Assembly: GCA_963842165.1 (NCBI GenBank)
Contig: CAWJFK010000005.1
Span: 326,070-390,069, forward strand
DNA: 64,000 nucleotides
Source of the DNA: an uncultured Thermoplasmata archaeon
GTDB taxonomy: Archaea; Thermoplasmatota; Thermoplasmata; Lutacidiplasmatales; UBA184
Direction of reading: 5' to 3'
A model generated the notes under the pieces. The model ran no database searches. It was given only the letters and a program-made list of their open reading frames with translations, and was not told the origin of the DNA. The stretch's first letter is position 1; every line of letters begins with the position of its first letter. Of the stretch, positions 29,895-55,405 are shown one piece after another. Position numbers and translations under genes: made by a program.

Positions 29895-29902
29895 GAGAGG
29901 GC

Positions 29903-38336: not shown

Positions 38337-40151
38337 ATGTCGCGGCACTCGTCCCCCGGGGGCCGGACCGGCCTTGCTCGATCGACCCCGAGCTTGCTGG
38401 CAGTGCTCGCGGCGATGGCCGTCGTGGGCGCGCTGATGCTGGTCGGCATCCATCCGGGATTCGCGAAATCCGTGGTCCCAGGCTCGGCCAAGGGCGCCCT
38501 CGCCTCCAATCTCGGGGCAACACCCGCCGGATGTAGCCCTCCGCCCACCGTGGGCCTCACCGGCGCCGGTTCGACCTTGGTGTACCCCCTGATGTCCCAG
38601 TGGGCCACGGTCTACGCGGGCGGGACGTCCGTGAATTATCTATCGGTCGGGAGCGGGACCGGAATCGCCGACATTACGGCCAAGACGGTCGACTTTGGTG
38701 CCACGGACGCCCCCCTCAACCCGGCGGAGCGCGGCGCCGCTCCCGGACTCCTCACGATGCCGGAGTCGGCGGGAGGAGTGGTACCCATCTACAACGTTCC
38801 CGGCGTCCCGATACTGAATTTCAGCGGGGCGGTCCTGGCGGGGATCTACCTCGGTACCATTACCAACTGGAACAACAGCGCGCTTCAGAGCCTGAATCCC
38901 GGCGTCGTTCTGCCGAACGACAGCATCGAGGTCGTCTACCGTTCGGATGCGAGCGGGACGACGTTCATCTGGTCGAGTTACCTTTCGGCCGAGAATACGA
39001 CGTGGAGCTCGATGATCGGCAAGGGAATCTCCGTCACCTTCCCGACGGGTACGGGCGAGCCGAAGGAGAGCGGGATGGCGAGCTACGTGCAGGCCACGCC
39101 GTACACGATCGGTTACGTCGACCTGAACGCCGCACTTGACGGCGTCATCTCCTTCGGAGCGGTCCAGAATCCGGCCGGCCACTTCATCCTCGCCACCGTC
39201 AATAGCACTGCGTCGGCCCTCAAGGATGCCAACCCCACGCTCCCCTCGGGGGACGGGGACTGGTACAACGTTTCCGTTCTGAACGCGCCGGGGACGTACG
39301 ATTACCCGATCACGTCGCTCACCTATGTGCTGGTGTATCAGGACCTTAGTGCGGCGTACCCGATGTACAATCTCACCAAGGCCGAGAATCTCGCCACCTT
39401 CCTCTGGTGGATGGTGACGACCGGGCAGAACTACTCGGCCCCGCTCTACTTCGTGCCGCTGCCGCAGTCGGTCGTTCTTCACGACGAGGCGATGATCGAG
39501 TCGATGACGTTCAACGGTTCCACTATACCGGTCTGCGGAGAACCGACGCCCCCTCCGACGTACGCGGTGACTTTCGTCGAATCCGGACTGGCCTCGGGGG
39601 CGAACTGGTCGGTCACCCTCAGGGAGGCCACCAACTCGTCGACCACCGACCGAGTGTCGTTCCAGTTTCCCAACGGATCGGTGACCTACACTGTGCACCC
39701 GGTGCGCGGCTACGCGGTCAACCAGTCTACCGGTTCGGTCGACGTTCATGGAGCTCCTCGGAACGTCATCGTCGGGTTCGCTGTGGTCCCGGCGCTCTAC
39801 CCCCTGACCTTTTCCGAGAGCGGTCTCCCCGGCGGGACCAACTGGTCGGTCACTGTCGGGGGGGCGACTCACACCTCAGCCAACAGCAGCATCACATTCC
39901 AGGAATCCAACGGGTCGTACTCCTACCAGGTCGGGGCCATCACCGGGTACACCGTCTCCCCGTCCGGCGGGCCGTTGACCGTCGCCGGGGCACCAGTCCA
40001 AGTGTATCTGGAGTTCAACACCACGGGGAGTACCTCCCACGGCGCGGCCGGCGGACTTTCCGCCCTCGACTACGCGGTCATCGGGTTGGTCGTTGCCGTC
40101 TTCGCGATATTGGCGATTCTCGTCATGATGCGAAGGAAGCGGAGCGCCTGA
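38337..40151 (+). CDS. pstS: membrane-anchored PstS-like phosphate-binding protein with two C-terminal 79-aa surface repeats and C-terminal TM helix
   Basis: Intact 604-aa ORF with an N-terminal TM. PstS core 'LTGAGSTLVYPLMSQWATVY...SVGSGTGIADITAKTVDFGATDAPL...VVYRSDASGTTF...IGYVDLN'. This is followed by two 'TF.ESGL..G.NWSV' repeats and 'YAVIGLVVAVFAILAILVMM'. Confidence 0.8.
   Translation: MSRHSSPGGRTGLARSTPSLLAVLAAMAVVGALMLVGIHPGFAKSVVPGSAKGALASNLGATPAGCSPPPTVGLTGAGSTLVYPLMSQWATVYAGGTSVNYLSVGSGTGIADITAKTVDFGATDAPLNPAERGAAPGLLTMPESAGGVVPIYNVPGVPILNFSGAVLAGIYLGTITNWNNSALQSLNPGVVLPNDSIEVVYRSDASGTTFIWSSYLSAENTTWSSMIGKGISVTFPTGTGEPKESGMASYVQATPYTIGYVDLNAALDGVISFGAVQNPAGHFILATVNSTASALKDANPTLPSGDGDWYNVSVLNAPGTYDYPITSLTYVLVYQDLSAAYPMYNLTKAENLATFLWWMVTTGQNYSAPLYFVPLPQSVVLHDEAMIESMTFNGSTIPVCGEPTPPPTYAVTFVESGLASGANWSVTLREATNSSTTDRVSFQFPNGSVTYTVHPVRGYAVNQSTGSVDVHGAPRNVIVGFAVVPALYPLTFSESGLPGGTNWSVTVGGATHTSANSSITFQESNGSYSYQVGAITGYTVSPSGGPLTVAGAPVQVYLEFNTTGSTSHGAAGGLSALDYAVIGLVVAVFAILAILVMMRRKRSA
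39561..40025 (+). repeat. tandem duplication of a roughly 79-codon extracellular domain inside the PstS-like gene
   Basis: Unit 1 (39561-39797) is 'YAVTFVESGLASGANWSVTLREATNSS...GYAVNQSTGSVDVHGAP'. Unit 2 (39798-about 40025) is 'YPLTFSESGLPGGTNWSVTVGGATHTS...GYTVSPSGGPLTVAGAP'. Confidence 0.65.
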
Positions 40152-41328: not shown

Positions 41329-42525
41329 CTAGACGGAGGATCCGCAACTGTTGGGGACGGTCGCCCCGTCAAACGTGATCGTCCCGATTGTCGTCTCATC
41401 GGCCGAGACGATGTACGCCGGCAGTGGGACATAGTAGAGGGCCGCGGAGTAGTTCTGGCCGGTCGTAACGGCCCAGTAGAGGAAGTCGACCAGCCCCTCC
41501 GCCTGGTTCAGGGTGTACGACCCGCCGTACGCTCCACTCAGGTCCTGGTACACCAGCACGTAGGTGAGGGACGTGATGGGGTAGTCGTCCGCGCCGGGTG
41601 CGTTCAGGTACCGGAGACGTTGTACCAGTCGCCGTTGCCCGCGGGGAGCGTAGGGTGGACGTCGGTGAGTGCCGAAAGGGAGTTGGTCACGTTCGCTAGG
41701 ATGTAGGTACCGGCGGGGTTCTGCACCTTCCCATAGGAGATTCCCCCACTCAGGGCGTAGTTCAGGTCGACGTAGCCGAGAGTGTACTGGGTGATCTGAA
41801 CGTACCCGGCCACGCCCGCGTTCTTGGGCTCGCCCGATCCCACCGGGAAGTCCACTTCGGTGCCCTTCCCGATGTTCTTGGCCCACGTAGTGCTCTCGAG
41901 TGAGAAATAGCTGGTCCAGATGAACGTCGTGCCGCTCCCATCGGACCGGTAGACCACCTGGATGGTCTGGTCGGGGAGGCTGGCGCCCGGGTTCAGGGCT
42001 TCGAGCACGGATCGTTCCAGTGCGTGATCGTGCCCAGGTAGATCTCGGCGAGGACGGTGCCGTTGAAGTTGAGGAGTCCTGCGCCCGGAACGTTGTAGAT
42101 GGGCACTACGCCTCCGGCCGATTCCGGGACAGTGAGAGCGCCCGGTGCGGTCAGCCGCTGTGCTGGGTTCAACGGGGCATCGCTTGCGCCATAATCCACC
42201 GTCTTCCCCGAGATATCGGTGATCCCCGAGGAACTCCCCACCGAAGCGTAGTTGACGGTCGTTCCGCCCCCGTAGATGGACTCCCATTGAAACATTAGGG
42301 GGTACACGGAGAGGAACCGGCTCCCTTGAGGCTGACCCCGGCGGGCGGCTCGCAATTGGTGAGAGTTCCACCCCCAGGGGACGAGCCCTTGAACCAACCT
42401 AGGGAGTACCCCGCGAGCAATATCACGACCACGATCACCACCGCGATCGCTGCGTAGATCGGGGTCGGAGCGCGTCGTCGATCAATCGTCTCGGTTGGAG
42501 CTGATGGCGTTCCCGGAGTGGCCAT
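41329..42525 (-). CDS. pstS: second membrane-anchored PstS-like phosphate-binding protein (about 3 frame changes near 42300, 42010, 41620)
   Basis: N-terminal TM 'IYAAIAVVIVVVILLAGY'. Then 'LKGAGS', 'FLSVYPLMFQWESIY...SVGSSSGITDISGKTVDYGASDAPL', 'VVYRSDGSGTTF...LGYVDLN' and 'DDYPITSLTYVLVYQD...', spread over ORFs 42295..42525, 41993..42397, 41604..42371 and 41329..41886. Confidence 0.75.
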
Positions 42526-43747
42526 AGATTCTGTATCAGCGCAGTGGATGACGTGCGAGAAGTGACATCCGATGGACGACGGCGCCCCGCGCTTTTAAGC
42601 CGGACAGGGGGAAAGTCTCGGGCCGACAATAGTTCCCGTGAGGTTTCGTAGAATGACGGGATTTACGGAGTTCTTGGGCGAACGGTCGGCCGACGAATAT
42701 GCCGGGTTGGTGTCCCTTGGCCCTTGAACACAACGTGTCGTCCACTCGCCTCGCGCGGATCGTTCCCAGGCCCGCTCCCCACCCAGATCGGCCGCGCCCT
42801 CGCGCTGAATGGTGATCGACGGCCGCATCCTCGAAGCGTGCAGGAGCACAGGGGCCCTCGTGACACCCTGGAGTGGGTTGAGACTCCGCAGCCGGTTGGA
42901 AGAGGCGGTCGATTTGTTCCCGTTCAGGACGTGCGCATGAACGTCGTGCTTCCGCAGGCGCAGGCCGCGGGCAACACGGATTCACTCCGGAAGGGGCCGT
43001 AGATTCGGCCGCAATGAGCGCATCTCATCCGGAAGTGGTGGGTGGATCGGTGGGGGACCGACCACGAAACATCGACAATCTTCTTGTGGGTCATTCCCCT
43101 GGAACCTTAGGGCCCCCCGGGCTTCGGAGAGGGTGACCGATTCGCCCCCTCGGGTTGACAGTACGTTCGGTCGCGGTAATGAACGTGTCGAGCGAACCCA
43201 AGAATCGGAACAGAAGGGGCCCCGACCGGAGTGAGCCGCGTCTCCAATGGCCACTTGGTTCCCCAAAGACTGACGCTTGATGGCAGGGTGGGAGCATTGA
43301 GACGAGCGTCCGTCGCAGAATCCGGGAGATGGATTGGTGAGACTGCAGCCTCTCCCTTCCAAGACCCGTCCGTGGGTTATCACTCGTCGAGCGAGAGGTT
43401 TGGGGCCAACGGTGCGAGAAGGGCCGACTCCCCGAAGGAAATCTCGACGGGCTGGATGGGCCGGCCGCCGCACCGGAGGGATTACCGGCCGCCGATCCTC
43501 GCATGAAGCTTCTGTTCGCACACTCGGGGGCGATGCCGGCCGCCAGAGTTGGAGGACCTGCCATCGATTTCCGTTTCGAGTAGTTCCAACTAGCTGGGAT
43601 AAACGGGAGGTGATAACGCGCCCACACTCCTTGGCCGGCACCAAAGCTATGTGAAATCTCCGGAGCGCTCTGATACCACGTAGTGAGGCGGTACGTGGAG
43701 GGTTCTTGCGAGCACGTGAGGTCGTGGTACGGGGGAATGAAGGAGAA

Positions 43748-43769
43748 CCCCGGGGCTCTTGCCCCGGGG
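43748..43769 (-). terminator. 9-bp perfect GC hairpin just downstream of the pilin-PstS gene
   Basis: CCCCGGGGC-tctt-GCCCCGGGG lies 31-52 nt after the stop at 43800. On the coding (minus) strand it is followed by 'TTCTCCTTCATT'. Confidence 0.35.
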
Positions 43770-43799
43770 GAAGAGGTTGGAATCGTACTCGTCGCCCAC

Positions 43800-45227
43800 T
43801 TAGATCTGATAGATGCTGATCTCGTTAGCCTCGGAGGCGAAGTTCTGGTTGTTGTAGGGGTCGATGGTGAACTGCAGCAGGCGCTGAACTTCACCGGTGG
43901 GTGCGCCGAGGGTGACCCACTGGAACGGCCGCCAGCCAACGTATCCCGTCGTCGCGGTCATTGGGACCTTGATCGCCGCCGCTATGGTCCCGCTCGCTCC
44001 GAGAGACGGCTGAATGGCCACTGACTGGCCCAGCCCCTCGACTCCGATGCCGCAGGCCGCCGTCGAGACGCCCGCGCAGGAGACTCCCGAGGTCGAAACT
44101 CGGGCGAGCCCGTCCGACGCGAAGCCGAGAGCGTCGGGGTGGGACGCGACGTAGGAGATCACTCCCGGGTTGCCGAGCTGAGCGGTGGTCGTAGCGATTC
44201 CGCAGCTCCCGAGCTGACCGTCCGAGCCGCAGCCGCCCCAGTTGTTCAACATCGCGGACAGGCCAGAGACCGGGGAGTTCCCCGATCCGATGCCGAGAAT
44301 CCGCGCCGTGAAGCTCTGGACCGTCCCGCCGGGGTCGCTCCGGGTAACCGTCTGGATGTTATCAGTGGCAGCATGCCCGGCGCCTCCGCCAGCGCAGACC
44401 GTCCAGCCGCAGGTTGACGTCCCAAGTACGGTCGCCGGGGCCGCGACGATGAGGTTACCGGTCGCGGTTCCAGAGGCCGGTGTGGCCGTGAAGGTTGTGA
44501 GCGGCGCCTCGGTGACGGCCGTGCCACCGCAAGCGGTGGCGCCGTTAACGCACGCCGGAATCTGGTCCCACGCGATCGGGGTGTTCGTCGCGATGGTGAT
44601 GCCGCTGGCCGGCGCCATACCGTTGATAGTCGCGGTCCAGATACCGGTGTAGGCGCTCGTGCTGGTCGTGATGTAGATCGAGAGCACCGTGTCCCAGCTG
44701 ATGCTGTACAACCCGTGGGGGCTGGCAGCGGGGGTCGCGCCCTGGGTGATCATGTCGACGCCGTCGTAGGCCACGGTCGTGATGACCGGGACACTGTTGC
44801 CACCCAAGGGGCACGCGTAGTTCGTCTGGAGGTTCGTGATGGTCTGGAGCGCTGACGTGGCTCCGATGTCCACCGCACCCGAACAGACCGCGATCATCCC
44901 TGCCCCAGATCCGCCCTGGTTGTCGCTAATCGCGATGTCCGAGTTGTTCTGCTCGAACTGAGCCACAGCGAGCTGGTCAAACGGGTAGACGGAGGTGCTC
45001 CCCCCGATGGTCACCGTGGTCTGGGCCGACTGGCCACCGATGCCACCGGTGACACTTCCCTGCCAGGCGACCAGCCAAAGGTAGAGCGCCGCCGCGGCCG
45101 CGACCGCGATGAGAATCAAGATCAACGTCGCCACGACGGGCGAAACTGCCTTGTTGTGGTTCTCACCACGGAGGCCCCGGAGGTACCTCATCTTTCGTTC
45201 TTTCTTCGTCGCATTCATTCCGCTCAT
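43800..45227 (-). CDS. PstS/PBP-like substrate-binding protein carrying an archaeal class III (type IV prepilin-like) signal peptide
   Basis: Intact 475-aa ORF. N-terminus '...RGENHNKAVSPVVATLILILIAVAAAAALYLWLV' has the DUF361/archaeal pilin-type charged-then-hydrophobic pattern. PBP_like_2-type core 'IGGSTSVYPFDQLAVAQFEQNN...NQGGSGAGMIAVCSGAVDIGATSA...VAYDGVDMI...RSDPGGTVQSF...GVISYVASHPDALGFAS', with Cys/Thr/Gly-rich insertions. Confidence 0.75.
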   Translation of the reverse strand: MSGMNATKKERKMRYLRGLRGENHNKAVSPVVATLILILIAVAAAAALYLWLVAWQGSVTGGIGGQSAQTTVTIGGSTSVYPFDQLAVAQFEQNNSDIAISDNQGGSGAGMIAVCSGAVDIGATSALQTITNLQTNYACPLGGNSVPVITTVAYDGVDMITQGATPAASPHGLYSISWDTVLSIYITTSTSAYTGIWTATINGMAPASGITIATNTPIAWDQIPACVNGATACGGTAVTEAPLTTFTATPASGTATGNLIVAAPATVLGTSTCGWTVCAGGGAGHAATDNIQTVTRSDPGGTVQSFTARILGIGSGNSPVSGLSAMLNNWGGCGSDGQLGSCGIATTTAQLGNPGVISYVASHPDALGFASDGLARVSTSGVSCAGVSTAACGIGVEGLGQSVAIQPSLGASGTIAAAIKVPMTATTGYVGWRPFQWVTLGAPTGEVQRLLQFTIDPYNNQNFASEANEISIYQI

Positions 45228-45267
45228 CTCTCTCGTTTTTCCCCCTTGTTGGTTGTTGTTGCGAGGC

Positions 45268-45287
45268 GGTCCCCGGTTGCGGGGACC
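45268..45287. promoter_or_regulatory. perfect 8-bp-stem inverted repeat in the divergent pilin-PstS / ATPase intergenic region
   Basis: GGTCCCCG-gttg-CGGGGACC lies between the divergent starts at 45227 (-) and 45471 (+). Confidence 0.3.
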
Positions 45288-45438
45288 ACGTTGCAGCTCG
45301 GGGACGGGTCCGGGCGTTCATATTCCGGGCCAAACGAGAAGCCGTAACGCGGCGAGGATTTCGGGCCCCACGGTGGCCGGAAGAATCGTGTTGTCAAACT
45401 CGGAGGTCTACGGTAACTACGGCTTCTCCGTGCGCAGT

Positions 45439-45446
45439 CCTTTATC
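45439..45446 (+). promoter_or_regulatory. TATA-like element upstream of the secretion ATPase gene (would give a leaderless mRNA)
   Basis: 'CCTTTATC' is centred about 28 nt upstream of ATG 45471. Confidence 0.35.
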
Positions 45447-45470
45447 GCGCTTCTACGAGTTCGGGACCGA

Positions 45471-47246
45471 ATGAACACCTCCGGGGCCGCCGGCCGCTCG
45501 GCCGTGTCGACGGAGGAGCGCTCCACCTCCTCTACGACCCGGGGAAGGGGCGCTCCTCCCGCACCCAAGGACCGCGCCAGCCTCCAGAGGGCCGCACGGG
45601 CGCTCGAGGCGCGGCTGATCACACGCGCGTCGATCCCGGAGAAGGTGCTCATCCAGGCCGAGCTGGGCTACATGCGGCGCCAGCTCCTTCAAGACCGGAA
45701 ATCGGTGGATGTCACCTACCCGGTCAACCCACCGTTCGCTTTCATCCGAATCTACTTCAGCGCCAAGGATAGCGAACTCCGCTACCAAGCCCTGGAGCCG
45801 ACGCTCAAGCCACACGAGGCCGAGCAGATCGTCCAGATACGGACGAAAATGGAATCGGTGATGTCCCAGGAGGAGCTGCCCGTACACGACGGACAATCGC
45901 TCGAGGAGTCACCGGCGCTGCGGGAGTACCTTCACAAGCGTTTCCTTACGGTCCTCGACCTCTACGACATCGCCGTTCCACCGAAGCGTCAGCCGGTGCT
46001 CCTCTACTACCTCCAACGCGAGTTTGTGGGCCTCGGGCGAACGGACTGCGTGCTACGGGACCCGTTCCTGGAGGACATCAGCTGCCTGGGCCCGGAGATC
46101 CCGCTGTACGTGTTCCATCGTGTCTACGGGTCGATGAAGACCAACGTGGCCTATGGGGGCGAGATCGAGCTGAACAAGTACATCTTCCGGCTCGCCCAGA
46201 TCGCGGGCAAGCACATCTCGATCTATCAGCCCATTCTCGACGCGACGCTGCAGGATGGGAGCCGCATCAACCTCACGCTCGGCACCGAGGTTACCCGCAA
46301 GGGGTCGACGTTCTCCGTCCGGAAATTCTCCCACGACCCGGTCTCGCCGATCGACCTGCTCAAGTTCGGCTCGGTGTCCGCGTTCGAGCTCGCCTACTTC
46401 TGGACCCTGGTCGAGAACCATCGTTCGCTGCTCATCTCGGGAGGGACCGCGGCCGGGAAGACGACGTTCCTCAACGCGATCTGCATGTTCGTCCGCCCCG
46501 AGGACAAGATCGTCTCGATCGAAGACACGCCCGAGATCCAGATCGACCACCAGAACTGGATCCAATCAGTTGCCCGGACGGGCTACGGCATGGCGAGCGG
46601 GATCAGCGGCGCTTCCGGGGTTTCTGGGCTGAGCGGAAACGTCCACCGTTCGGCCGGCACCGTCACCCTCTTCGACCTCCTCGTCGCAGCGCTACGGCAA
46701 CGTCCCGAGTACGTGATCGTGGGAGAGGTCCGGGGGACCGAGTCGTTTACGCTCTTCCAGGCGATCTCGGTCGGTCACGCGTCCATGTCGACGATCCACG
46801 CCGGTTCCATCGCGGAGCTTCTTCACCGCGTCGAGAACGAGCCGATGAACATCCCCCGCGTACTCTTCCAAGCCCTGGACGCCGTCGCCTTCCCGGCGCA
46901 GGTCGTGGTGCGGAACTCCCGCGTCCGACGGATCATGGGAGTGACTGAGATCCTCGAGGTCGACAGCGTCACGAACGAGATGCTGACGAACGACGTCTTC
47001 CACTGGGAACCGGCCACGGATTCGTTCGCCTACCTGGGACGGAGCTTCGTGCTCGAGCACATCGCCGAGCGGGGCGGGAAGGACATCGACTCCCTGTTGG
47101 CGGAGATGAGGCGAAAAGAACAGTACCTCCAACTGATGGATCGCCTCAACATGACGTACTACCGCGACGTGAGCCGCACGATCGCCGCCTACTACGTCGA
47201 CCCGAAGGAAGCGGTGGCGACCCTCGAAAAACGCATCGCCGGCTGA
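45471..47246 (+). CDS. type II/IV secretion-system ATPase of the archaeal FlaI/ArlI-TadA family
   Basis: Intact 591-aa ORF with Walker A 'ISGGTAAGKTTFLNA', 'IVSIEDTPEI', Walker B/Asp box 'RQRPEYVIVGEVRG' and His box 'GHASMSTIHA'. Confidence 0.9.
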   Translation: MNTSGAAGRSAVSTEERSTSSTTRGRGAPPAPKDRASLQRAARALEARLITRASIPEKVLIQAELGYMRRQLLQDRKSVDVTYPVNPPFAFIRIYFSAKDSELRYQALEPTLKPHEAEQIVQIRTKMESVMSQEELPVHDGQSLEESPALREYLHKRFLTVLDLYDIAVPPKRQPVLLYYLQREFVGLGRTDCVLRDPFLEDISCLGPEIPLYVFHRVYGSMKTNVAYGGEIELNKYIFRLAQIAGKHISIYQPILDATLQDGSRINLTLGTEVTRKGSTFSVRKFSHDPVSPIDLLKFGSVSAFELAYFWTLVENHRSLLISGGTAAGKTTFLNAICMFVRPEDKIVSIEDTPEIQIDHQNWIQSVARTGYGMASGISGASGVSGLSGNVHRSAGTVTLFDLLVAALRQRPEYVIVGEVRGTESFTLFQAISVGHASMSTIHAGSIAELLHRVENEPMNIPRVLFQALDAVAFPAQVVVRNSRVRRIMGVTEILEVDSVTNEMLTNDVFHWEPATDSFAYLGRSFVLEHIAERGGKDIDSLLAEMRRKEQYLQLMDRLNMTYYRDVSRTIAAYYVDPKEAVATLEKRIAG

Positions 47247-47252
47247 GGCAGC

Positions 47253-48202
47253 ATGTCGACCCCGGTGAAGAGCGCCGTCGGGACCCCGACCGGGGCGGGC
47301 GAGGAGACGCCTCCCAAGCCCGCAACGCCGCTCGTCTCGAGGTATCGCACCTTCTGTTACCGGCTCTTCGGCGAACGACTCGACACGGGGGAGGGGCAGG
47401 AAGCGATCACCGAACAGCTGCAGCGGGCGGGGATGAGCGTCACGCCCGGGATGCACTACTCGGTCGAGATCGTGACCTCGGCCATCGCCGCGGCGACCGG
47501 ATTCGTCATCAGCTTGTTGCTGTTCGACCTGGTCCTCCACAGCCCGCTCTGGTACCTATTCGTCCTCGTGATCACGGTGGTCGCCGCGGGGCGACGGTCG
47601 GCGGCTTCAGTTTCCTCCTGACGTCGCGCATCGCCAATCGGAAGGACGAGTTGGAGCGGGAGCTCCCGTTCACGCTCAGTGAGTTGTCGGTGCTCGCCAG
47701 CACCGGAACCTCCCCGATCCGGCTCGTTCGTCGAATGGCCGGGCGCGACCATGACCCGGCGATGACCGCCGAGTTCAAGCGGGTGGTCTACAAGACGGAC
47801 ATCCAGGGCAAGGACCTGATCACGGCCCTCGCCGAGACGGCCAAAGAATCCGCCTCAACCTCGGTGCGGGAGTCGTTCTGGGACCTTGCCAACATGATCC
47901 ACCAGGGGGGCAACCTCGACGAGTACCTTCGAGCCAAGTCGGACGACGTGATGAAGCTCCGCCGAGGCGTGCAGGAAGAGTTCATCGAGCGCCTCACAAC
48001 CTTCCTCGACATGTACGTCAGCCTCGTCCTCACCGGCATTCTGCTGCTCGCGGTGGCCGCGTTCCTGATCAACGCCCTGGGAAGCACGGCCGCCGGGCTG
48101 AATGCGAACGAACTCCTCTTGCTCCTGACGTTCGGCCTGGTTCCCGTTTCGGTCGCCATGACGATCATTCTGATCTCGATCGCGTACGCGAGGGCCGAAT
48201 GA
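47253..48202 (+). CDS. FlaJ/TadC-type platform protein, first T2SSF-like half (one frame change near 47588)
   Basis: ORF 47253..47621 (cytoplasmic N-terminus plus TM helices) joins at a G4 run to ORF 47651..48202 ('ELPFTLSELSVLASTGTSPIRLVRRMA...' followed by TM helices). Confidence 0.75.
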
Positions 48203-49647
48203 GGGCGCGGTCCCGGTTCCTCGGTCTTCTCGGGGTGCTGCTGATTTCCGCCTTGGCCCTTCTGGCGCCGCTGGGAAACGCGCGACCCGCCCCGTCCGCC
48301 GCCGGTCCCATCCTTATCTCGGTAGTCTCCCCCACGCCGAACAGCACCGTCTATTCCAGCACCCCCACGATCGTGGCGACCTACAACGACCTCGGCCCGG
48401 GGTCGATCAATCCGTCCGCCGTGTACATGCTCGTCGACGGGCAGAACATCACCGGGATCCAAGGATTCAATGTGAGCACCACCCAGGTCAGTTACACGCC
48501 CCCGACGATCATCGCACTGAACAACAGCAATCACTCGGTCACGGTCTTGGTCTCCGATACGGCCGGACGGTCGGCGTCCCTGACGTGGAACTTTACGGTC
48601 AACACGAACGCCGCTCCCGCGCCGAACCCCCTCGCCGGACTCAAGATCACGACGGTCCTGGTCTACATGGGGGTCGGTGCGGCCATCGCGCTCGGCGCCG
48701 TGGGCGGATACATCCTCTTCCTGAGGCAGACGGCCCGATTCACGTTCCGGAGATACTTCGCGACGCATCCGGTCGAGAGGAACTATCTCGTGATCTACAT
48801 TCCCTTCGCCGTCGCCTTCGCGTTCGTCCTCGTCGGGTTGCTCTACGTGTACTCGACCCCGGGTCTGCCCAGTAACGCCGTGGATTACGTCTTCATCATC
48901 GCCGTTTTCATCGCCCTCACGCTCTGGGGCATCGATTCGCGCCGTGAGATGATGCGGATCCGCGCCTACGAGCGGGCCTTTGCCCAGCTCCTCTTCGAGA
49001 TGGCCGACGCGATGCGGGGCGGCATCGACCCCGCCAAGGCGATCGTCGAATTGTCCAAGACGCACACTAACATCCTGCGGAAGAACCTCCGAATCGCCGC
49101 CGACGGCGTTCGCCTGGGTCGCCCCTTCGACGAGGTACTCCGGGATATGGTCGCCCCGATGAGGAGCAGGCTCATCACGCGATACGCGGGGTTGATCGCC
49201 GATGCGACATCCATCGGAGGCGAAACAGCGACCGTCGTCTACCGCGCGGCCAAGGACATGGACGACTTCGTCAAGATCGAAGAAGAGCGGGAGAAGAAGC
49301 TCTACCTACCGGTCGCGGTCATCTACATCGCCTTCGGCGTGCTGACGGCCGTTCTCGTGGCGCTCCTCTTCATCGCTCCCGAGCTCGGCAGCATCAACAT
49401 CAATTTCCTCAGCTCCAGCCATCCGCTTTCCTCGGCGGGATCGGCGTCGTCGTCGTCGGTCGCACCGGTCCCCCACCTCGCGTTCTCGGCCCTGAAGGAG
49501 CGGTTCTTCGAGCTCATGCTCATCAACGCCTTGGGTACCGGCGCCATCATTGGGGCCTTCACCGAAGGGCGCGCCCGCTACGGGATCCTCCATTCCCTCG
49601 CGCTCGTGGCGGGCACGGCCATGGTCTTCGCGATCCTGTTTCCGTGA
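48199..49647 (+). CDS. FlaJ/TadC-type platform protein, second T2SSF-like half, with N-terminal signal peptide and extracellular Ig-like domain
   Basis: ATGA overlap with the upstream gene. Signal 'FLGLLGVLLISALALLAPLG'. Ig-like segment 'ILISVVSPTPNSTVYSSTPTIVATY...VDGQNITG...HSVTVLVSDTAGRSASLTWNFTVN'. Then TM helices and 'LLFEMADAMRGGIDPAKAIVELS...'. Confidence 0.75.
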   Translation: MRARSRFLGLLGVLLISALALLAPLGNARPAPSAAGPILISVVSPTPNSTVYSSTPTIVATYNDLGPGSINPSAVYMLVDGQNITGIQGFNVSTTQVSYTPPTIIALNNSNHSVTVLVSDTAGRSASLTWNFTVNTNAAPAPNPLAGLKITTVLVYMGVGAAIALGAVGGYILFLRQTARFTFRRYFATHPVERNYLVIYIPFAVAFAFVLVGLLYVYSTPGLPSNAVDYVFIIAVFIALTLWGIDSRREMMRIRAYERAFAQLLFEMADAMRGGIDPAKAIVELSKTHTNILRKNLRIAADGVRLGRPFDEVLRDMVAPMRSRLITRYAGLIADATSIGGETATVVYRAAKDMDDFVKIEEEREKKLYLPVAVIYIAFGVLTAVLVALLFIAPELGSININFLSSSHPLSSAGSASSSSVAPVPHLAFSALKERFFELMLINALGTGAIIGAFTEGRARYGILHSLALVAGTAMVFAILFP

Positions 49648-49765
49648 TCGAGGTCCGCGACGCTGGCCGTCCCCCAGTGGTAGGCCTATCGTGCCTCGCG
49701 TCAGACCCAGATGTACTGAGAGCCTGCGAAGGAGGTTTCCGCCGAGCGACAGGGACCCGCCCGAC

Positions 49766-50671
49766 CTAGGGGGTGGTGTAAACTTCGGACGCCGAGCCCG
49801 TCAGCCCTAGAGTGTTCGTCACGTTGAGGAAGATGGTGTACATCGTCAGCCGGGGTGGTCACGAACGGATGAGCCAACTGGGCCTGTTGACCGTAGTACG
49901 TGCCTCGATCGGGGTCGCTGAGCAGCGGGGTGATTACGGTCCAGACCCATTGGACGATGGCAGCATTGGGGGATGACCCCGAGTGGGGTTGGTAGGATTG
50001 GGAGCCGTCGAGGATGGGGTAACCTGTGAGGAAATTGAGTCCGATCTCCGGGACTGGGGGGAACAGGGTCTCGACAAACGTGTTCCCGAGTGTGGTGCCC
50101 AGTTGGACCTGGACGGACGTGGAGGAATACAGGAAGGGCTGGAGATAGAACGAGCTGTCGTTGATCGTGACGGCGGTGACGGAGAAGGGCGCGAGGTTCA
50201 GATAGGACGTGCCCCCGGCCACGGGAAACTCGTGGAAGTTCGCCGCGTCGCCTAGCAGCGAAACGTTACACCCGGGGTCTTCACAATAGGACTCGGCCGG
50301 ATCCCCCCCCACAGCGATGTCGGTGAGTGAAATGTTGTAGATGTCGGCAGAGGAGAGAATCAGAGTGATGTTCCCCGGGTACGTGCCGGGAACCGCCGGG
50401 GGGCCGGGGGAGGAATGACGTAGCCCGGGACGTTGGCCACACTTTGAATGGTGACGTTCTCGAGATTCTTGAGATGGAGTTGATTCTGTTCCCTGAGGTT
50501 GGTCTGCTCCTCCGACGCGACGAAGAAGGAGAATGCGGTGGCCGCGGCCACCACGATGAGGACGAGCATGAGGGTGCCGACGATCTCCGCAAGGCCGCGG
50601 CGATCCGGTCGTAGCCCTTTCCGGTCGCGCATCGGCTGTCGAGGGGGGCCTCGCGTCATAGGCCTGCCCAC
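49766..50671 (-). CDS. pilin-like protein with class III signal peptide (two frame changes near 50385 and 49855)
   Basis: N-terminus 'RKGLRPDRRGLAEIVGTLMLVLIVVAAATAFSFFV'. The body is reconstructed across ORFs 50360..50671 and 49701..50312 and ends '...RLTMYTIFLNVTNTLGLTGSASEVYTTP*' at 49766-49768. The switches are at C-runs. Confidence 0.6.
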
Positions 50672-50758
50672 CGGAGATTCCGTAGTTGGAAGGCTACTCC
50701 GTAGACTACCGGACTCTACACGCCACGTTGTTAAACGACCTAGCCTCCTGTCGAGCGC

Positions 50759-51388
50759 GTGAACATCCCCGTCGAGGTACCGGGCCTCGACACCATCATC
50801 CCGGAGATCGAGGAGGGGCGGCTGCTCGTCGTCGAGAGCGGCGCCGACTCGGCCAAGAGCTACTTCGTCCGGAGGCTGAGCCTGAGCGCCGGCCGGGTCG
50901 GATCCCCGGTGACGTTCGTAACCTCCCGGGACGAGGCGGAGGTCCGGGCGCTCCTCGCCAGCGAGGCGGACGAGGGCCAGCGCTCCGAGGGCTGGGTCCG
51001 CATCATGGAACGGGACGGGATCGAGAGCTTCGAGGAGTTCGAACCGGCGGGGGGTCTACTGACGGTCGATTCGTTCTCCTACCTGACGCTCAACCTCCCA
51101 CCGGCCGAACTGGCCTCGTCCCTCCGGCGGCTCCGGACCGCGTGTCGAACCCGGAACATGACGGCCATTCTGGCGACCGATCGAGGGATGCTGGATACCC
51201 GGTCGGAAGCGGTCGTGACCCACCTCTCCGATGGGTTCTTGCAGTTCCACGCCCGAGAAGGTCCGGAAGGGGTGCTGCGATTCCTCCGCATTCCCAAGTG
51301 GATGGATGGGAAGTTTGTCGACCGGAATATCTATTATGAGTTCGACGGCAAACGTATCATGATCGACCTGCGGCGACGGGTGCTCTAG
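50759..51388 (+). CDS. KaiC/RecA-fold FlaH(ArlH)-like protein with degenerate Walker A
   Basis: 209-aa ORF with a GTG start. 'GLDTIIPEIEEGRLLVVESGADSAKSYF' aligns to the KaiC/FlaH 'GxxGxGKS' region, but the second Gly is Ala. Confidence 0.6.
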   Translation: MNIPVEVPGLDTIIPEIEEGRLLVVESGADSAKSYFVRRLSLSAGRVGSPVTFVTSRDEAEVRALLASEADEGQRSEGWVRIMERDGIESFEEFEPAGGLLTVDSFSYLTLNLPPAELASSLRRLRTACRTRNMTAILATDRGMLDTRSEAVVTHLSDGFLQFHAREGPEGVLRFLRIPKWMDGKFVDRNIYYEFDGKRIMIDLRRRVL

Positions 51389-51401
51389 GCGGGGTGGAGG
51401 C

Positions 51402-52472
51402 GTGCCGACCGGGTCCTACGAGCGCTACGGTCTCACCAGCAACCCGTTCCGGGATCTGGCGAGCGAGAGCCTCGAGGACGTGAGCCTCTACCACGTCAAC
51501 CAGGAAGTGGACGAGACCCTTCGGACGATCAAGGACGAAGTCTACGACAAAGAGAACCGGGCCGTCGTGGCCATCGTCGGCCCTCACGGGGCCGGAAAGA
51601 CCGAACGGCTCCTGGTCACCGCGGCGGAGGCCAAAGAGCATGGCGCGTTCGCGGTGTACTACGACGTGCCCGCCAAGACGGCCAAGGTCCTCCGGGGCGT
51701 GGCCACCCAGTTCCAGGCGGCGGCCGCCGCCCGGACCAAGGGTAAGCTGTTCGCTTCCCAACCCCCTTGGGTCAAGGCGATGGCGTCGCTCGCCAAGATC
51801 GGCGACGAGAAGTACGACCCCAAGGACGCCGGCAGAATCGTCGGACAAGCGCTCAACGGCACCGCCCCCTCCTTCCTGCTGCTAAACGACCTGAACAACC
51901 TCATCGCGTCGAAGGAGGTCGACGCGTTCGCGAAGGTGATCCAGGAGATCACCGACACGATCAAGCCCGGCGTCCTCCTCATGTTCACCTGCTATCCGAG
52001 CTATCTCGCGTGGCTCACCGTCAACCATCCGGCCCTCTCCTCTCGCATCAACCGCTCGCTCACGTTGGCCGGGTTCAGCGACGAGGAGGCCGCCCTCCTC
52101 CTCGCGAAGAAGCTCTTGGTCAAGCGCCTGGTCGAGGACCTCGACCCGATCTACCCGTTCGACCGGGAAGCGATCCACCTGCTCAACCAGGCGGCCTTGT
52201 CGAACCCGCGACGACTGCTCGAATTGGCCGACCTCGCCGTCGAGTATGGCGCTGCTCACCGGTCCTATCGGGTGGACGCGGAGGTCGCGAACGCGGTGAT
52301 CGGCCAACGAGCCGCGAGCGTGGCCGCGAACACCGCATCGGCCAAGGCGAGCGCCGGGATCGGTCCCCCCCGCGGCCCCCGCCCTGCGGACGAAGGCGAT
52401 GGGCGCGCCGGCAGCCCCAGACACGAAGGGTGGCTGGGCCGAGAGCTAGCACCTACGCCGGCGCGGGCGTGA
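51402..52472 (+). CDS. AAA+/P-loop ATPase, ExeA(GspA)/AAA_22-like
   Basis: N-terminal 'YGLTSNPF' motif and Walker A 'IVGPHGAGKTE'. 356 aa, GTG start, with a disordered Gly/Pro/Arg-rich tail. Confidence 0.6.
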   Translation: MPTGSYERYGLTSNPFRDLASESLEDVSLYHVNQEVDETLRTIKDEVYDKENRAVVAIVGPHGAGKTERLLVTAAEAKEHGAFAVYYDVPAKTAKVLRGVATQFQAAAAARTKGKLFASQPPWVKAMASLAKIGDEKYDPKDAGRIVGQALNGTAPSFLLLNDLNNLIASKEVDAFAKVIQEITDTIKPGVLLMFTCYPSYLAWLTVNHPALSSRINRSLTLAGFSDEEAALLLAKKLLVKRLVEDLDPIYPFDREAIHLLNQAALSNPRRLLELADLAVEYGAAHRSYRVDAEVANAVIGQRAASVAANTASAKASAGIGPPRGPRPADEGDGRAGSPRHEGWLGRELAPTPARA

Positions 52473-53469
52473 GCAGGACCGAGAGGTCGATCGCCTGCTC
52501 GGCGATCTCGGAGGCGTAGCCCGCGGTCCGGCCGAGGCTGTCCACGATCGTGCCCAGGGCCAGGAGTTCCTCACCCCGCTTGGTCGACACCCGGTGCGAG
52601 AGGGAATCGATCAGCTTCTTGTGCTCGCCTTCCGCGTCGATCGCCTGATTCGCGGCGTCGATGTCCCGCGTGATGAGGGCCGTGAACGCTCGATCGAGGA
52701 GGTTGACCGCCGACGCGCGCGCTTCGTCGATCTCCTTCGCGAGCTTGGGGTCGAGCGGCTTTCCGCCGCTCAGTGCTGGGTAGGTCGCGGCGATGCGTTT
52801 CGCGTGGTCGCCGATGCGCTCGATGAGCTTCGCGATGAGCCGGTGCGCGTGGATCGCCAGCGAGTTTCCTCCGTTGCCCTGCGGCTGGGGGGAGGAATGC
52901 GCGAGGTGGTACTGCTTCGAGATCATCCAGAAGAGCCGGCTGACGTCCTGGCTGCGGAGCGCGACATCGTTGGCGAGGCTCTCGTTCCCCGTTTCGATCG
53001 CGGTCACGGCGTCCTCCAGCATCGCGCGCACGGTGAGGTGCATCCGACGCAGACACTTGTCCGAACTCAGCTCCGACGGGTCGGAGAGGTCCTGGATCAC
53101 GATGGAGTTCTTCGCCTCTTCGATCACCTCCGGTCCGATCACGAGCCGACAGAATTCCCGGGAGACCCGACGGACGAAGGGCGCGCGGTCCGGCGAGAAC
53201 CGGATCTCGATGAGGCCGAATCCGGAGGTGTAGGCGCCGATGAGCTTGCGCAGGAGATGGTCCCGCTCCTCCTCGCCTCGCTCCTGGAAGAGCATCCGCC
53301 GGTCGGCGGGCTTCTCCCCCGCCCGAGGCCGCACCGAAACCGAGCCGTCCGTCTCGGTTTCGACGAAGAGCGTGTCCCCGGCCTTGAGGCCAGCGTGGAT
53401 CACCCAACGTTTCGGCAGGGAGACAAGATAGGTCGACTTGCCGGCGAGCTGGAGTTTCCGTCCCTCCAT
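52453..53469 (-). CDS. phoU: AbrB/SpoVT-domain plus PhoU-domain phosphate-uptake regulator (archaeal type)
   Basis: Intact 338-aa ORF. It has an N-terminal swapped-hairpin 'KSTYLVSLPKRWVIHAGLKAGDTLFVETETDGSVSV' and two PhoU repeats ('IERIGDHAKRIA', 'LGRTAGYASEIAEQA'). Confidence 0.85.
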   Translation of the reverse strand: MEGRKLQLAGKSTYLVSLPKRWVIHAGLKAGDTLFVETETDGSVSVRPRAGEKPADRRMLFQERGEEERDHLLRKLIGAYTSGFGLIEIRFSPDRAPFVRRVSREFCRLVIGPEVIEEAKNSIVIQDLSDPSELSSDKCLRRMHLTVRAMLEDAVTAIETGNESLANDVALRSQDVSRLFWMISKQYHLAHSSPQPQGNGGNSLAIHAHRLIAKLIERIGDHAKRIAATYPALSGGKPLDPKLAKEIDEARASAVNLLDRAFTALITRDIDAANQAIDAEGEHKKLIDSLSHRVSTKRGEELLALGTIVDSLGRTAGYASEIAEQAIDLSVLLTPAPA

Positions 53470-53611: not shown

Positions 53612-54619
53612 GTGGACCGGACCGTGCCGGGATTCCCGCGGCTCCGCGAGTCGTACGATGTGGTCGTCGTCGGGGGCGGCCACGCCGGACTCCAGGCGGC
53701 CCTCAAGACCGCCCTGTTTCGGTACCAGGCCGCTCTCATCGACCGGGGTCCGAAGTACAGTCGCTCGTTCTACGCTCCCCTCCTTGAAAACATTCCGGGG
53801 TTCCCGAACGGGGTGTCGGGGCACGCGCTCCTCGACCTTCAGGTCGAGTCGGTCCGGAAGGTCAGCGAGTGGGTGAGCTACTTCAGCCCCGCGACCGCTC
53901 GGACGGTGGAGCGGACCGACGCCGGGTTTGCCGTCCGCTTCGACTGGCTGAAGCAGGACCTCACCGCCCGGGGCCGCGCCGTGGTGCTCGCCATGGGGGT
54001 GGTCGACCGGATCCTCGAGGTCGGAGGGGAGATCAAGACGATCTTTCCGTGGGCCAACCAGGCGCTGGTCGATTTCTGCATCTTTTGCGACGGTCACCTG
54101 ATGGGGGCGAAGTCCATCGCTGTCCTCGGCCACGATGCGTTTGCGGTGCGAACGGCCCTCGACCTACTGCACTTCCAACCGTCGTCGGTCGAGATCCTGA
54201 CGCACGGGAGACCGCTTCTCGCGGGGTCTCCGCCTACCGAGGCTGAGGAGCTGCGAGCCGCGCTCGTCGAGAAGGGAATCACCCACTTCGAATCGGAGAT
54301 CACGGGGTTCGACGAGATCCGGGAGAAACGCTTCGGGGTCCAGTTCGCCGACGGGAGCCACCGGAGCTACGCCAAAGGGTTCAGCGCCCTCGGCTGGTAC
54401 GACATGCACCAGGAGATCCCGCGCTCGCTCGGCTGCCGTTTCGATCCGGAGGGGTATGTGGTCACCGACGAAGACAGCCGCGCGATATCGGACGCCACCG
54501 GCGAGCCGATCCCAGGCCTCTACTGCGTGGGGGACCAGCGGAACGGGTGGAATCAGATCCCCGAGGCGTGGGCGACGGCCGAGCGGGCCATCATCCACGC
54601 GTACGCAGCGTATCTCTAA
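53612..54619 (+). CDS. thioredoxin-reductase-like FAD/NAD(P)-dependent oxidoreductase
   Basis: 'YDVVVVGGGHAGLQAA', 'CIFCDGH' (CxxC in TrxR position), 'IAVLGHDAFA' and 'GLYCVGDQ'. GTG start. Confidence 0.7.
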   Translation: MDRTVPGFPRLRESYDVVVVGGGHAGLQAALKTALFRYQAALIDRGPKYSRSFYAPLLENIPGFPNGVSGHALLDLQVESVRKVSEWVSYFSPATARTVERTDAGFAVRFDWLKQDLTARGRAVVLAMGVVDRILEVGGEIKTIFPWANQALVDFCIFCDGHLMGAKSIAVLGHDAFAVRTALDLLHFQPSSVEILTHGRPLLAGSPPTEAEELRAALVEKGITHFESEITGFDEIREKRFGVQFADGSHRSYAKGFSALGWYDMHQEIPRSLGCRFDPEGYVVTDEDSRAISDATGEPIPGLYCVGDQRNGWNQIPEAWATAERAIIHAYAAYL

Positions 54620-54630
54620 CCGGTACCGGG

Positions 54631-55405
54631 CTACGCGGCCATCGCCGGGTTGGTGACCGACACGCCGAGCTGGCGGGCGAGGTGCGGTAGGTCGGGCGCG
54701 ACGGCGGCCGCGCCTCCGGCCAGGAATCGGGCCTCGCTCTGGGTGGAACCGGCGGCCTCCGAGGGGTCGGGCAGTACCTGCATAGAAACGCACCCGCGCC
54801 GCGACGGCGCATTCCGCGTCGATGAGGTGGTCCCCGACGAAGACGGCGCGGTCGATCGGGACCTCCATCTCCTGAAGGAGCCCGAGCAGCGCCTCGGGGG
54901 AGGGCTTGGAAGGTCCGGAGAAGCTCCGACTCCGCAGGTAGGGGAAGTACTTCGCGAGGCCGGTTCGGTTGAGAGCACCGCGCGCGAACTCCTCCGAGCT
55001 GCGGGTCAGGATCCCGAGGCGGAAGCCGCGCTCGGTCAACCCCTTCAGCAGTGGATCCGCGCCAGGCCGCGCGACCGTGCGCGGGAGCGCCTCCATCTCG
55101 ATCGCGTCGATCGCACGGTGGAACTCCGTCTCGAACCGGTACAGGACCCCGTCGCTCGCACCGGAATTGTGGATCGCTTCGCGCGCCTGTTCCAAGATCC
55201 GGTGGATGGGGTCGTTCACGGAGAGATGGCCCGGGGTCACCCCGGACTTTTCCGCGATACGGATCGCGGTGGCGCGCATTCGGCCGAAATCGTGGTGGGA
55301 GAGGACGAGCGTCCCATCGAGGTCGAAGCCGACTCCGAGGAGAGGTTCGAGGTACTTGGGGTCCGGGTCTCGAGGCGGCATGTAAGCACCGGCGCCACCA
55401 GACAC
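54631..55405 (-). CDS. HAD-superfamily phosphatase (one frame change near 54785)
   Basis: Motif I 'GFDLDGTLV', 'ILTRS' and 'FVGDHLIDAECA'. The C-terminal roughly 50 aa continue in ORF 54631..54978. Confidence 0.65.

Follow-up and report, generated by a model that had tools for sequence, protein, structure and literature searches.

A putative phosphate-specific, bindosome-like type IV pilus system with a PstS-like pilin in Thermoplasmata and other archaea

The window studied here is a stretch of 64,000 nucleotides (nt) with a G+C content of 62-72%, from contig CAWJFK010000005.1 (assembly GCA_963842165.1) of an uncultured Thermoplasmata archaeon of the Lutacidiplasmatales. Between positions 43800 and 53469 it carries eight genes, for a PstS-like protein with the N-terminus of a pilin, a pilus-type assembly ATPase, a platform split into two proteins, a second pilin, a KaiC/ArlH-like protein, a P-loop NTPase and a regulator with a PhoU domain, and this locus probably specifies a type IV pilus system that is bindosome-like and specific for phosphate. 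An earlier note on the window had listed the first seven genes, all of which are present at their positions, two of them interrupted in their open reading frames (ORFs) by frameshifts, and its interpretation as a bindosome-like phosphate pilus is supported by our analysis. The finding is broader than the note supposed, as the gene set, recognized by sequence similarity, is present in more than a hundred genomes from three archaeal lineages, including cultured methanogens.

The gene of the PstS-like pilin (43800-45227, minus strand) encodes a product of 475 amino acids (aa) with two profile matches, to TIGR02537 (archaellin/pilin N-terminal domain; 34 bits against a cutoff of 20, residues 25-53) and to the Pfam family PBP_like_2 (27.8 bits, just above the cutoff of 27). 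The protein is made up of a basic class III presequence (residues 1-27), a hydrophobic helix (28-60), a Gly-rich linker (61-69) and a head (70-475). Its N-terminus reads ..RGENHNKA/VSPVVATLILILIAVAAAAALYLWLVAW, that is, a basic start with Ala at position -1 and the hydrophobic run next to it. In a search of PDB sequences, 21 of the 25 residues V28-L52 were identical to residues 1-25 of mature Iho670 from Ignicoccus hospitalis, and as V28 aligns with residue 1 of the mature protein, cleavage is predicted between A27 and V28. The class III N-terminus ascribed to this product in the earlier note is supported both by the above-cutoff profile match and by this alignment.

Conservation is distributed very unevenly along the protein. 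For 120 homologues, the mean identity to the window protein is 97.1% in the helix (residues 28-56), 51.4% in the head and 41% in the presequence, and by inspection all 120 either carry the motif A/G-V-S-P-V-V-A-T-L or begin inside it via a miscalled start. A helix kept at 97% while the head is at 51% is the pattern expected for packing in a filament core, not for a simple membrane anchor; judged by these alignments, the N-terminal helix is as conserved as the helices of filament-forming pilins.

The head belongs, by fold, to the phosphate-binding proteins. In an AlphaFold model built with 28 homologues (mean pLDDT 80.4), a long free helix (30-60) leads, through a short linker of low confidence, into a head with two lobes, and the top 42 Foldseek matches in the PDB were all PstS or other phosphate-binding proteins, with E-values down to 9e-13 and TM(target) of 0.50-0.80, at an identity of only 10-16%. 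The phosphate ligands of Clostridium perfringens PBP-1 have been published (S11, T12, S13, S41, S59, R125, S129, G130 and T131; PMC5381212), and in a profile alignment with this protein the nine positions map to S77, T78, S79, S107, S125, R296, G300, G301 and T302, respectively. The family consensus retains nine of the nine ligands, and the window protein eight. Out of 121 sequences, the positions of S77, T78, S79 and S107 are conserved in 121, 121, 121 and 121 (S or T), and those of S125, R296, G300, G301 and T302, in 119, 121, 111, 121 and 120. Ser takes the place of Escherichia coli Asp56; C. perfringens PBP-1, a less selective binder of phosphate, has the same substitution (PMC5381212). 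Model confidence, fold matches and ligand conservation agree with the binding-protein fold that the earlier note had assigned to this product, and from its sequence we describe it as a fusion in which a class III presequence and a pilin helix precede a PstS fold whose phosphate pocket is largely intact; in terms of family membership it is, by its profile scores, a divergent PstS paralogue and not an equivalog.

Inserted in the head is a Cys-rich segment with three Cys pairs that are invariant. The six residues concerned, C115/C139, C273/C278 and C333/C342, are invariant or nearly so (116-121 of 121 sequences), and from their spacing three disulfide bonds are likely in the head and the insertion; two more Cys pairs are variable. 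The insertion is relevant to a reading which we find distinctly unlikely, that of an adhesion or structural pilus made from a PstS fold, the head of which would bind mineral phosphate, a surface or a partner cell, or would just coat the filament. A large Cys-rich insertion with three invariant pairs, a score well under the PstS cutoffs and the two canonical PstS genes that the organism already has would all fit such a pilus, and the head of 42-45 kDa is large yet compatible with a filament estimated to be about 11-12 nm thick. On the other hand, strong purifying selection on nine positions lining a buried pocket for orthophosphate, in 121 sequences, is hard to explain without ligand binding, and in relatives the pilin gene heads a pstSCAB operon.

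The machinery genes start with the assembly ATPase of type IV pilus type (45471-47246, plus strand; T2SSE, E = 2e-33). Its best-scoring model is NCBIfam FlaI, with 386 bits against a cutoff of 550; the BasE model yields 165 bits (cutoff 1000). On the membrane-protein side of the Bas system, the BasF model reaches 19 bits (cutoff 1300). Among PDB sequences, 2OAP (Archaeoglobus fulgidus GspE2) scores 377 bits, ahead of FlaI with 270 bits, and the overall similarity order is 2OAP, then FlaI, and then, at a large distance, CpaF and Bas; faint matches to the PilB3_N/C families of Pfam are seen too.

The platform is encoded by two genes, as the earlier note had proposed, with a T2SSF domain in each, the first gene being broken in the window. 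Platform protein 1 (47253-48202, plus strand; one T2SSF domain, 1e-11 on 47651-48202) is divided by one frameshift near 47590 into ORFs 47253-47621 and 47651-48202: in relatives it is a single gene of 316-320 aa, and tblastn with these intact orthologues gives two frames meeting at 47588-47591. Platform protein 2 (48199-49647, plus strand; T2SSF 4e-10 at residues 267-390) overlaps the first gene by 4 nt and consists of a signal or transmembrane segment, a stretch of approximately 130 aa, transmembrane segments and the T2SSF domain. Read by eye, the N-terminal stretch of about 130 aa (window positions 48199-48700) appears extracytoplasmic and beta-rich, and is putatively immunoglobulin (Ig)-like. 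The Big_1 domain is found in the methanogen versions of platform 2, and in the related loci L062, L149, L151 and L152 the domain is located at the opposite, C-terminal end. T2SSF platform proteins do not usually have an Ig-like domain, and this one could make contact with the pilins.

The second class III pilin (49766-50671, minus strand) has the N-terminus ..RRG/LAEIVGTLMLVLIVVAAATAF.. and two frameshifts, at about 50430-50540 and about 49847. It had been described as a single class III protein; the class III assignment stands, since an orthologue (L001:4668-5507) matches TIGR02537 with 28.6 bits (cutoff 20), and the single ORF does not, the intact gene of 279-294 aa being found in relatives. 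It is followed by a KaiC/ArlH-like RecA-fold protein of 209 aa (50759-51388, plus strand; PF06745, 33.2 bits, cutoff 26.6), whose Walker A region, GADSAKS, looks degenerate by eye; its orthologues match KaiC/DUF7125, and the one from Methanolobus scores 53 bits with the ArlH model (cutoff 215). The next gene encodes a P-loop NTPase (51402-52472, plus strand) with the Walker A motif GPHGAGKT. The earlier note had called it an ExeA-like AAA+ ATPase, which is not supported beyond a sub-threshold similarity to AAA_22, with 20-26 bits (cutoff 27) in the window protein and in four of the five orthologues tested; the most distant of these (L143) had no AAA_22 match. We therefore treat it, by its sequence motif, as a conserved partner in the cluster and a P-loop NTPase without closer assignment. 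Searches of PDB sequences gave nothing usable for the KaiC-like protein and no relative for the P-loop protein. The last gene, for an AbrB/MazE-PhoU regulator (52453-53469, minus strand; PhoU 4.7e-22, MazE_antitoxin 3.2e-7), converges on the P-loop gene, so that their 3' ends overlap.

This arrangement is strongly conserved in relatives. A pilin-anchored scan, with one genome per species, yielded 66 loci, mostly from Thermoplasmata metagenome-assembled genomes (MAGs) with sample names indicating soil and peat; labels within this set include five of Nitrososphaerales/Thaumarchaeota, two of bacterial bins and one of Methanobacteriota. Several related MAGs stem from the study that named the Lutacidiplasmatales, and L042 bears that name. 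The ATPase gene lies head-to-head with the pilin gene, within 1.5 kb, in 39 of 45 loci having at least 2.3 kb upstream, and all seven partners in the same order, making eight genes with AbrB-PhoU, are present in 29 of 31 loci having at least 9 kb upstream. The adjoining AbrB-PhoU gene mentioned in the earlier note is thereby found in the same position in 29 of 31 loci. By these counts the eight-gene arrangement is far beyond chance. In an ATPase-anchored scan of metagenome contigs (at least 70% identity and at least 1.7 kb upstream) the pilin gene was head-to-head with the ATPase gene in 38 of 38 cases. The synteny of PstS-like pilin, ATPase and platform that the note had proposed to look for in related genomes is therefore seen from both sides, and as all 38 ATPases have the pilin upstream, the machine does not occur in these contigs without a binding-protein gene next to it. 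More distant ATPases, from lower-GC contigs and with 42-61% identity, mostly keep a class III PBP_like_2 protein in the cluster, and some keep AbrB-PhoU; five of six tested proteins encoded upstream of such ATPases match PBP_like_2.

These counts have to be set against the reading that the genes are only co-localised, which we consider rather unlikely. In that case the class III N-terminus would anchor a PstS paralogue, the machine would build an ordinary pilus from the second pilin, e.g., for adhesion to mineral surfaces under phosphate starvation, and the genes would lie together only by virtue of a shared Pho-type regulator. A separate conventional class III pilin gene (279-294 aa) is indeed always in the cluster, archaeal pilus machines commonly use pilins encoded elsewhere (PMC4858521), and PstS-like pilin genes without an adjoining machine are found in L017, L023, L031 and L050. 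However, a mere anchor would not be expected to retain 97% identity beside a head at 51%, nor to share 21 of 25 residues with the Iho670 core, and simple neighbourhood does not readily account for the head-to-head ATPase in 38 of 38 contigs with near-constant spacing, nor for a methanogen ATPase gene that overlaps the pstA stop codon.

Outside Thermoplasmata, the module is found in the Nitrososphaerales MAG JOPF037, where locus L062 (2209-12341) holds genes for a class III PBP_like_2 protein, an ATPase, two platforms, a KaiC-like protein and a canonical PstS, as well as a 474-aa class III pilin; L061 is another such contig. Mis-binning of a Thermoplasmata contig was considered as the source of the Nitrososphaerales loci and rejected, as the L062 proteins are only 28-47% identical to those of the window and the gene order differs. 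The degree of sequence divergence points to either old inheritance or transfer between soil archaea.

The link to phosphate uptake is also seen in the genomic context. In relatives, pst genes lie beside the pilin gene (L004/L068, L005, L012, L025, L069): L068 has pilin, PstS, PstC and PstA genes in this order on one strand, and L025 and L069, the latter with an ATPase 86% identical to that of the window, add PstB. In L020, L034 and L049 pstB is located directly upstream of AbrB-PhoU. As AbrB-PhoU is fixed in the cluster and pst genes adjoin it in relatives, the pilus cluster sits inside a pst-phoU neighbourhood.

In Methanomicrobia the association takes a different form. Of 120 homologues of the PhoT-type PstS from this lineage, 119 begin with ..AVSPIVATLVLIVVAV.., and the remaining one differs at a single residue; the homologues include proteins from Methanolobus tindarius, M. 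vulcani, Methanolacinia petrolearia, Methanoculleus marisnigri, Methanosarcina siciliae and ANME-2c. We analyzed four loci, those of Methanolacinia petrolearia (L149, CP002117), Methanolobus tindarius (L150, AZAJ01000001), Methanoculleus (L151) and Methanosarcina siciliae (L152, CP009508). In all four, the class III pstS is followed by pstC, pstA and then a pilus ATPase gene whose start overlaps the pstA stop; the ATPase (621-750 aa, with a long N-terminal extension) takes the usual place of pstB, and no pstB was found within 10 kb of any of the four loci. In M. tindarius, the ATPase is 47% identical to the one in the window, and both PstC and PstA are above the equivalog cutoffs. The platform genes follow the ATPase gene in M. 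tindarius and M. siciliae and are located upstream of pstS in M. petrolearia and Methanoculleus. A KaiC-fold gene and a neighbour of 369-379 aa are close by in all four, those of M. tindarius matching ArlH and pilin N-terminal models, respectively, and by Pfam domains the layout in M. siciliae is the same as in M. tindarius. M. tindarius and M. siciliae have AbrB-PhoU within 10 kb, and none was seen within that distance in M. petrolearia and Methanoculleus.

There is also a bolder version of the proposal, less likely than not in our view and put forward tentatively, in which the pilus machine would itself take part in phosphate uptake beyond mere display: a dynamic filament or pseudopilus of PstS-like pilin would extend, load phosphate and retract, its loaded subunits docking on PstCA ("fishing"). 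The methanogen operons, in which the ATPase gene overlaps the pstA stop and stands in the place of pstB, with no pstB within 10 kb, would then encode a composite importer. The pilus ATPase as a replacement motor for PstB was also considered; it was rejected, as the ATPase has no ABC (ATP-binding cassette) features and pstB is present in Thermoplasmata relatives, and the layout is regarded as a peculiarity of the methanogen operons.

The pilin and ATPase genes are separated by a divergent control region (45228-45470), and the distance between them hardly varies: measured from fixed codon to fixed codon, it is 462-503 nt in 93 of 98 loci. On the pilin side (minus strand) there is a TATA-like box with the conserved sequence ATAT(C/G)AA (45317-45323), a GC-rich hairpin in the 5' untranslated region (45260-45295), then an A-rich linker and a Shine-Dalgarno sequence GGGGG (45241-45245). 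Of 73 non-identical loci, 72 have the leader hairpin, with 62 distinct stems among them (mean z = -2.4 relative to shuffles), and the sense strand is stabler in 52 loci, the antisense strand in 18. A hairpin that is kept while its stems differ, with a bias to the sense strand, argues for an RNA structure in the pilin leader. It has no Rfam match, and RNAalifold applied to a MAFFT alignment of the 73 leaders gave no consensus structure, because indels misalign the stem; the hairpin is shown by folding of individual sequences. On the ATPase side (plus strand), the TATA-like sequence CTTTATC (45440-45446) is located 25-31 nt ahead of the ATG, which suggests a leaderless mRNA. Beside each of the two divergent promoters lies one copy of an inverted 11-bp pair, TACGGnnnCTC (45336-45346 in reverse and 45418-45428 in forward orientation), and the motif recurs at fixed positions in 24 and 42 of the 88 loci (expected fewer than one), with 81-83 nt between the copies. 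Given its placement and recurrence, this pair is a candidate operator for a shared regulator, perhaps AbrB-PhoU.

The leader is relevant to yet another reading. A phosphate sensor, in which the ArlH-like and P-loop ATPases together with AbrB-PhoU would monitor ligand-dependent assembly or retraction of the pilin and thereby control the Pho regulon, is in our opinion highly improbable. In bacteria, PhoU signals via PstB and PhoR with no pilus involved, and the strong Shine-Dalgarno sequence together with the structured leader suggests a highly expressed structural protein. What the sensor would explain is the presence of two extra cytoplasmic NTPases and a PhoU-domain regulator fixed in the cluster, and KaiC-family proteins are switches in other pilus-type systems (PMC4858521).

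Returning to the phosphate-specific, bindosome-like pilus system as the preferred reading, we envisage it as follows. A prepilin peptidase encoded elsewhere in the genome would cut the PstS-like pilin after A27, and the adjacent ATPase with its two-part platform would lift the protein out of the membrane, a step probably modulated by the ArlH-like and P-loop proteins. Via its helix the pilin would assemble, alone or with the second pilin, into a surface filament or a short pseudopilus, a homopolymer of which would be approximately 11-12 nm thick, as estimated from the head mass at a rise typical of archaeal pili. The phosphate-binding heads would thus be displayed away from the membrane, and they might feed the Pst ABC importer directly or pass phosphate on to the products of the two neighbouring PstS genes, both of which are anchored in the membrane. 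Expression could be tied to the phosphate status by AbrB-PhoU, with the inverted TACGGnnnCTC pair as the candidate site.

Several observations weigh against this scheme. Delivery is its weakest step, as docking on PstCA is impossible for a head that is held in a filament; it may be that only membrane-proximal subunits deliver, that phosphate is handed over, or that the structure is dynamic. With two canonical PstS genes in the organism, basic Pst function does not depend on the pilin form. The 475-aa product does not reach the PstS equivalog models, with 50.8 bits against 206.6 for TIGR02136 and 28.3 against 205 for TIGR00975, and the position of PBP-1 S129 is occupied in the window protein by Gly (G300), not Ser. 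Out of 45 PstS-like pilin loci, six lack a divergent upstream ATPase, and the window itself contains no pstC, pstA or pstB. A motif scan for the prepilin peptidase signature GxGDxK in hydrophobic ORFs found none in the window or in 152 loci, and for this reason the processing enzyme is only assumed. Cleavage, assembly, the filament and phosphate binding are predictions made from sequence. Finally, two machinery genes are hit by frameshifts, and if these are real, the system is dead in this genome.

In total, the phosphate and pilus genes of the window contain at least six frameshifts, which lie at or beside short G/C runs. ORFs that appear fused or truncated are also seen at 28913-30814, 32989-35184 and 35251-35664 (aldehyde dehydrogenase, amidohydrolase-aminotransferase). 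As the frameshifts are beside G/C runs, the orthologues are intact and other ORFs in the window are broken as well, we take them for assembly errors: most likely, though this is not proven, they are indel errors of a long-read assembly and the genes are not pseudogenes.

Three of these frameshifts fall in a canonical PstS paralogue with an N-terminal transmembrane anchor (41329-42534, minus strand; PBP_like_2 on a fragment), to which the intact orthologues align by tblastn in four frames, with 61-81% identity. This gene is downstream of the pilin gene on the same strand, and in relatives it is followed by pstC, pstA and sometimes pstB. The other canonical PstS (38337-40151, plus strand) has two extra beta-rich repeats and a C-terminal transmembrane anchor; it is a TIGR00975 equivalog (286.7 bits, cutoff 205) and matches PBP_like_2 with 5.8e-34. 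Three PstS-type genes thus lie within 7 kb, with three modes of anchoring: a C-terminal transmembrane segment, an N-terminal transmembrane segment and a class III pilin helix. The 1.27 kb that separate the pilin gene from the neighbouring PstS gene (42535-43799) contain no convincing ORF and no Rfam or tRNA match, the corresponding distance in relatives being only 300-500 nt, and gave no blastn or tblastx match in related loci, within the segment itself or in plasmids. Rfam, searched with the whole window at the gathering threshold and with 42400-43900 at E <= 1, returned only one tRNA-Leu. On the other side, 5-7 kb downstream of the cluster, are a CHAD domain gene (58907-59560, minus strand) and a Ppx/GppA gene (59667-60659, plus strand); thymidylate-kinase-like (61910-63001, plus strand) and HAD hydrolase (54164-55405, minus strand) genes are also located downstream, and these genes fit the Pho/polyphosphate neighbourhood mentioned in the earlier note.

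Since 2007 the bindosome has stood as an oddity of the Sulfolobales, and little about it is understood. Should our interpretation hold, its logic would appear here independently, with another pilus machine and another nutrient, and would point to an undescribed way of phosphate capture in which one locus joins a binding protein, a pilus machine, ABC permeases and a PhoU-type regulator. The system may likewise be a means by which archaea that abound in acid soils and peat cope with scarce, mineral-bound phosphate. Current annotation scatters the gene set under such names as "flagellin-like protein", "substrate-binding protein" and "type II secretion protein". Genetic tools are available for some Methanosarcina species, and the cultured carriers (Methanosarcina siciliae, Methanolobus tindarius and Methanolacinia petrolearia) make a role of pilus machines for solute-binding proteins directly testable.

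Among known systems, the archaellum shares with the locus a FlaI-like ATPase, a FlaJ-like platform and an ArlH-like protein of the KaiC fold. We nevertheless reject it, in agreement with the earlier note: the ATPase remains below the FlaI cutoff (386 bits, with 550 required), the eight-gene cluster contains no archaellin and no ArlF/G/CDE/X, and the platform is split. Lutacidiplasmatales have been reported to lack archaellum genes, and the genome paper does not mention pili or pst (PMC9287336). By its ATPase, the machine is most similar to the euryarchaeal clade 2 (system 2) pili, represented by PilB3/PilC3 and PilA1-6 of Haloferax volcanii and GspE2 of A. fulgidus. In the classification of Makarova, clade 2 has its ATPase beside the archaellum clade and often features two tadC genes and KaiC-family neighbours (PMC4858521), which the two tadC-like platforms and the KaiC-like neighbour fit, the placement being a tentative one by similarity ranking. 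Unlike in the clade 2 adhesion pili, the pilin head here is a binding protein and the cluster is tied to pst and phoU; the main text of Makarova 2016 (PMC4858521) mentions neither phosphate nor ABC transporters.

The Iho670 filament of I. hospitalis (PDB 5KYH, 3J1R), a solved pilus-like adhesion filament, has nearly the same mature N-terminal helix, VSPV[IV]ATL[LI]LILIAVAAA. Its head domain is unrelated to that of the PstS-like pilin, and Iho670 is not known to bind a ligand. Similarity to the canonical PstSCAB-PhoU system comprises the PstS fold, the ligand set, the adjoining pst genes in relatives and the PhoU-domain regulator. In canonical PstS, however, a Sec signal or a lipobox is expected where the PstS-like pilin has a pilin N-terminus, and the pilin further differs by Ser in place of E. 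coli Asp56, by the Cys-rich insertion and by scores below the equivalog cutoffs. The methanogen loci depart from PstSCAB in having the pilus ATPase directly after pstA and no pstB within 10 kb.

The earlier note had named the Sulfolobus bindosome as the only precedent for solute-binding proteins that use a pilus pathway, and in this respect it is out of date. An April 2026 preprint proposes that binding proteins with class III signals, euryarchaeal ones included, are a widespread way to functionalise pilus machines for nutrient scavenging, and that they are often encoded beside ABC transporters and not in pilus clusters. In its text there is no mention of phosphate or PstS and no description of a binding-protein gene inside a pilus locus, and the supplementary tables may list members of the family. 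Literature searches on class III PstS, FlaFind and phosphate, pst and type IV pili in methanogens, and Methanosarcina pstS and secretion returned nothing relevant. With the precedent of the preprint, the claim that the arrangement is undescribed holds for the text of the literature searched and not for the general idea. The distinct lineage invoked in the note is likewise right as to occurrence in Thermoplasmata, and the arrangement is not special to one lineage, being found also in Methanomicrobia and Nitrososphaerales.

The Sulfolobus bindosome itself offers a functional analogy, as there, too, a class III signal is found on the binding protein that serves an ABC importer, and a dedicated pilus-type ATPase and a membrane protein are implicated in its placement at the surface; for the present locus, synteny suggests this dependence on the machine. 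In Saccharolobus (Sulfolobus) solfataricus it consists of the BasEF machine, the pilin-like proteins BasABC and the sugar-binding proteins GlcS, AraS and TreS, and small pilin-like partners encoded with the machine are common to the bindosome and the present locus. The differences are no less clear. The bindosome binds sugars, whereas the present locus, from its sequence, belongs to the phosphate class; the platform here is split, and ArlH-like, P-loop and AbrB-PhoU partners are added. The binding-protein gene is inside the machinery locus here, whereas in Sulfolobus it is found with the ABC transporter, far from bas, according to the April 2026 preprint. The carriers, in turn, are Thermoplasmata, Methanomicrobia and Nitrososphaerales. 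A BasEF orthologue was considered and rejected on the scores given above (BasE 165 bits, BasF 19 bits), and since the machinery is not orthologous to BasEF, the system is best seen as an independent, phosphate-specific counterpart of the bindosome, arisen by convergent recruitment of a euryarchaeal pilus machine.

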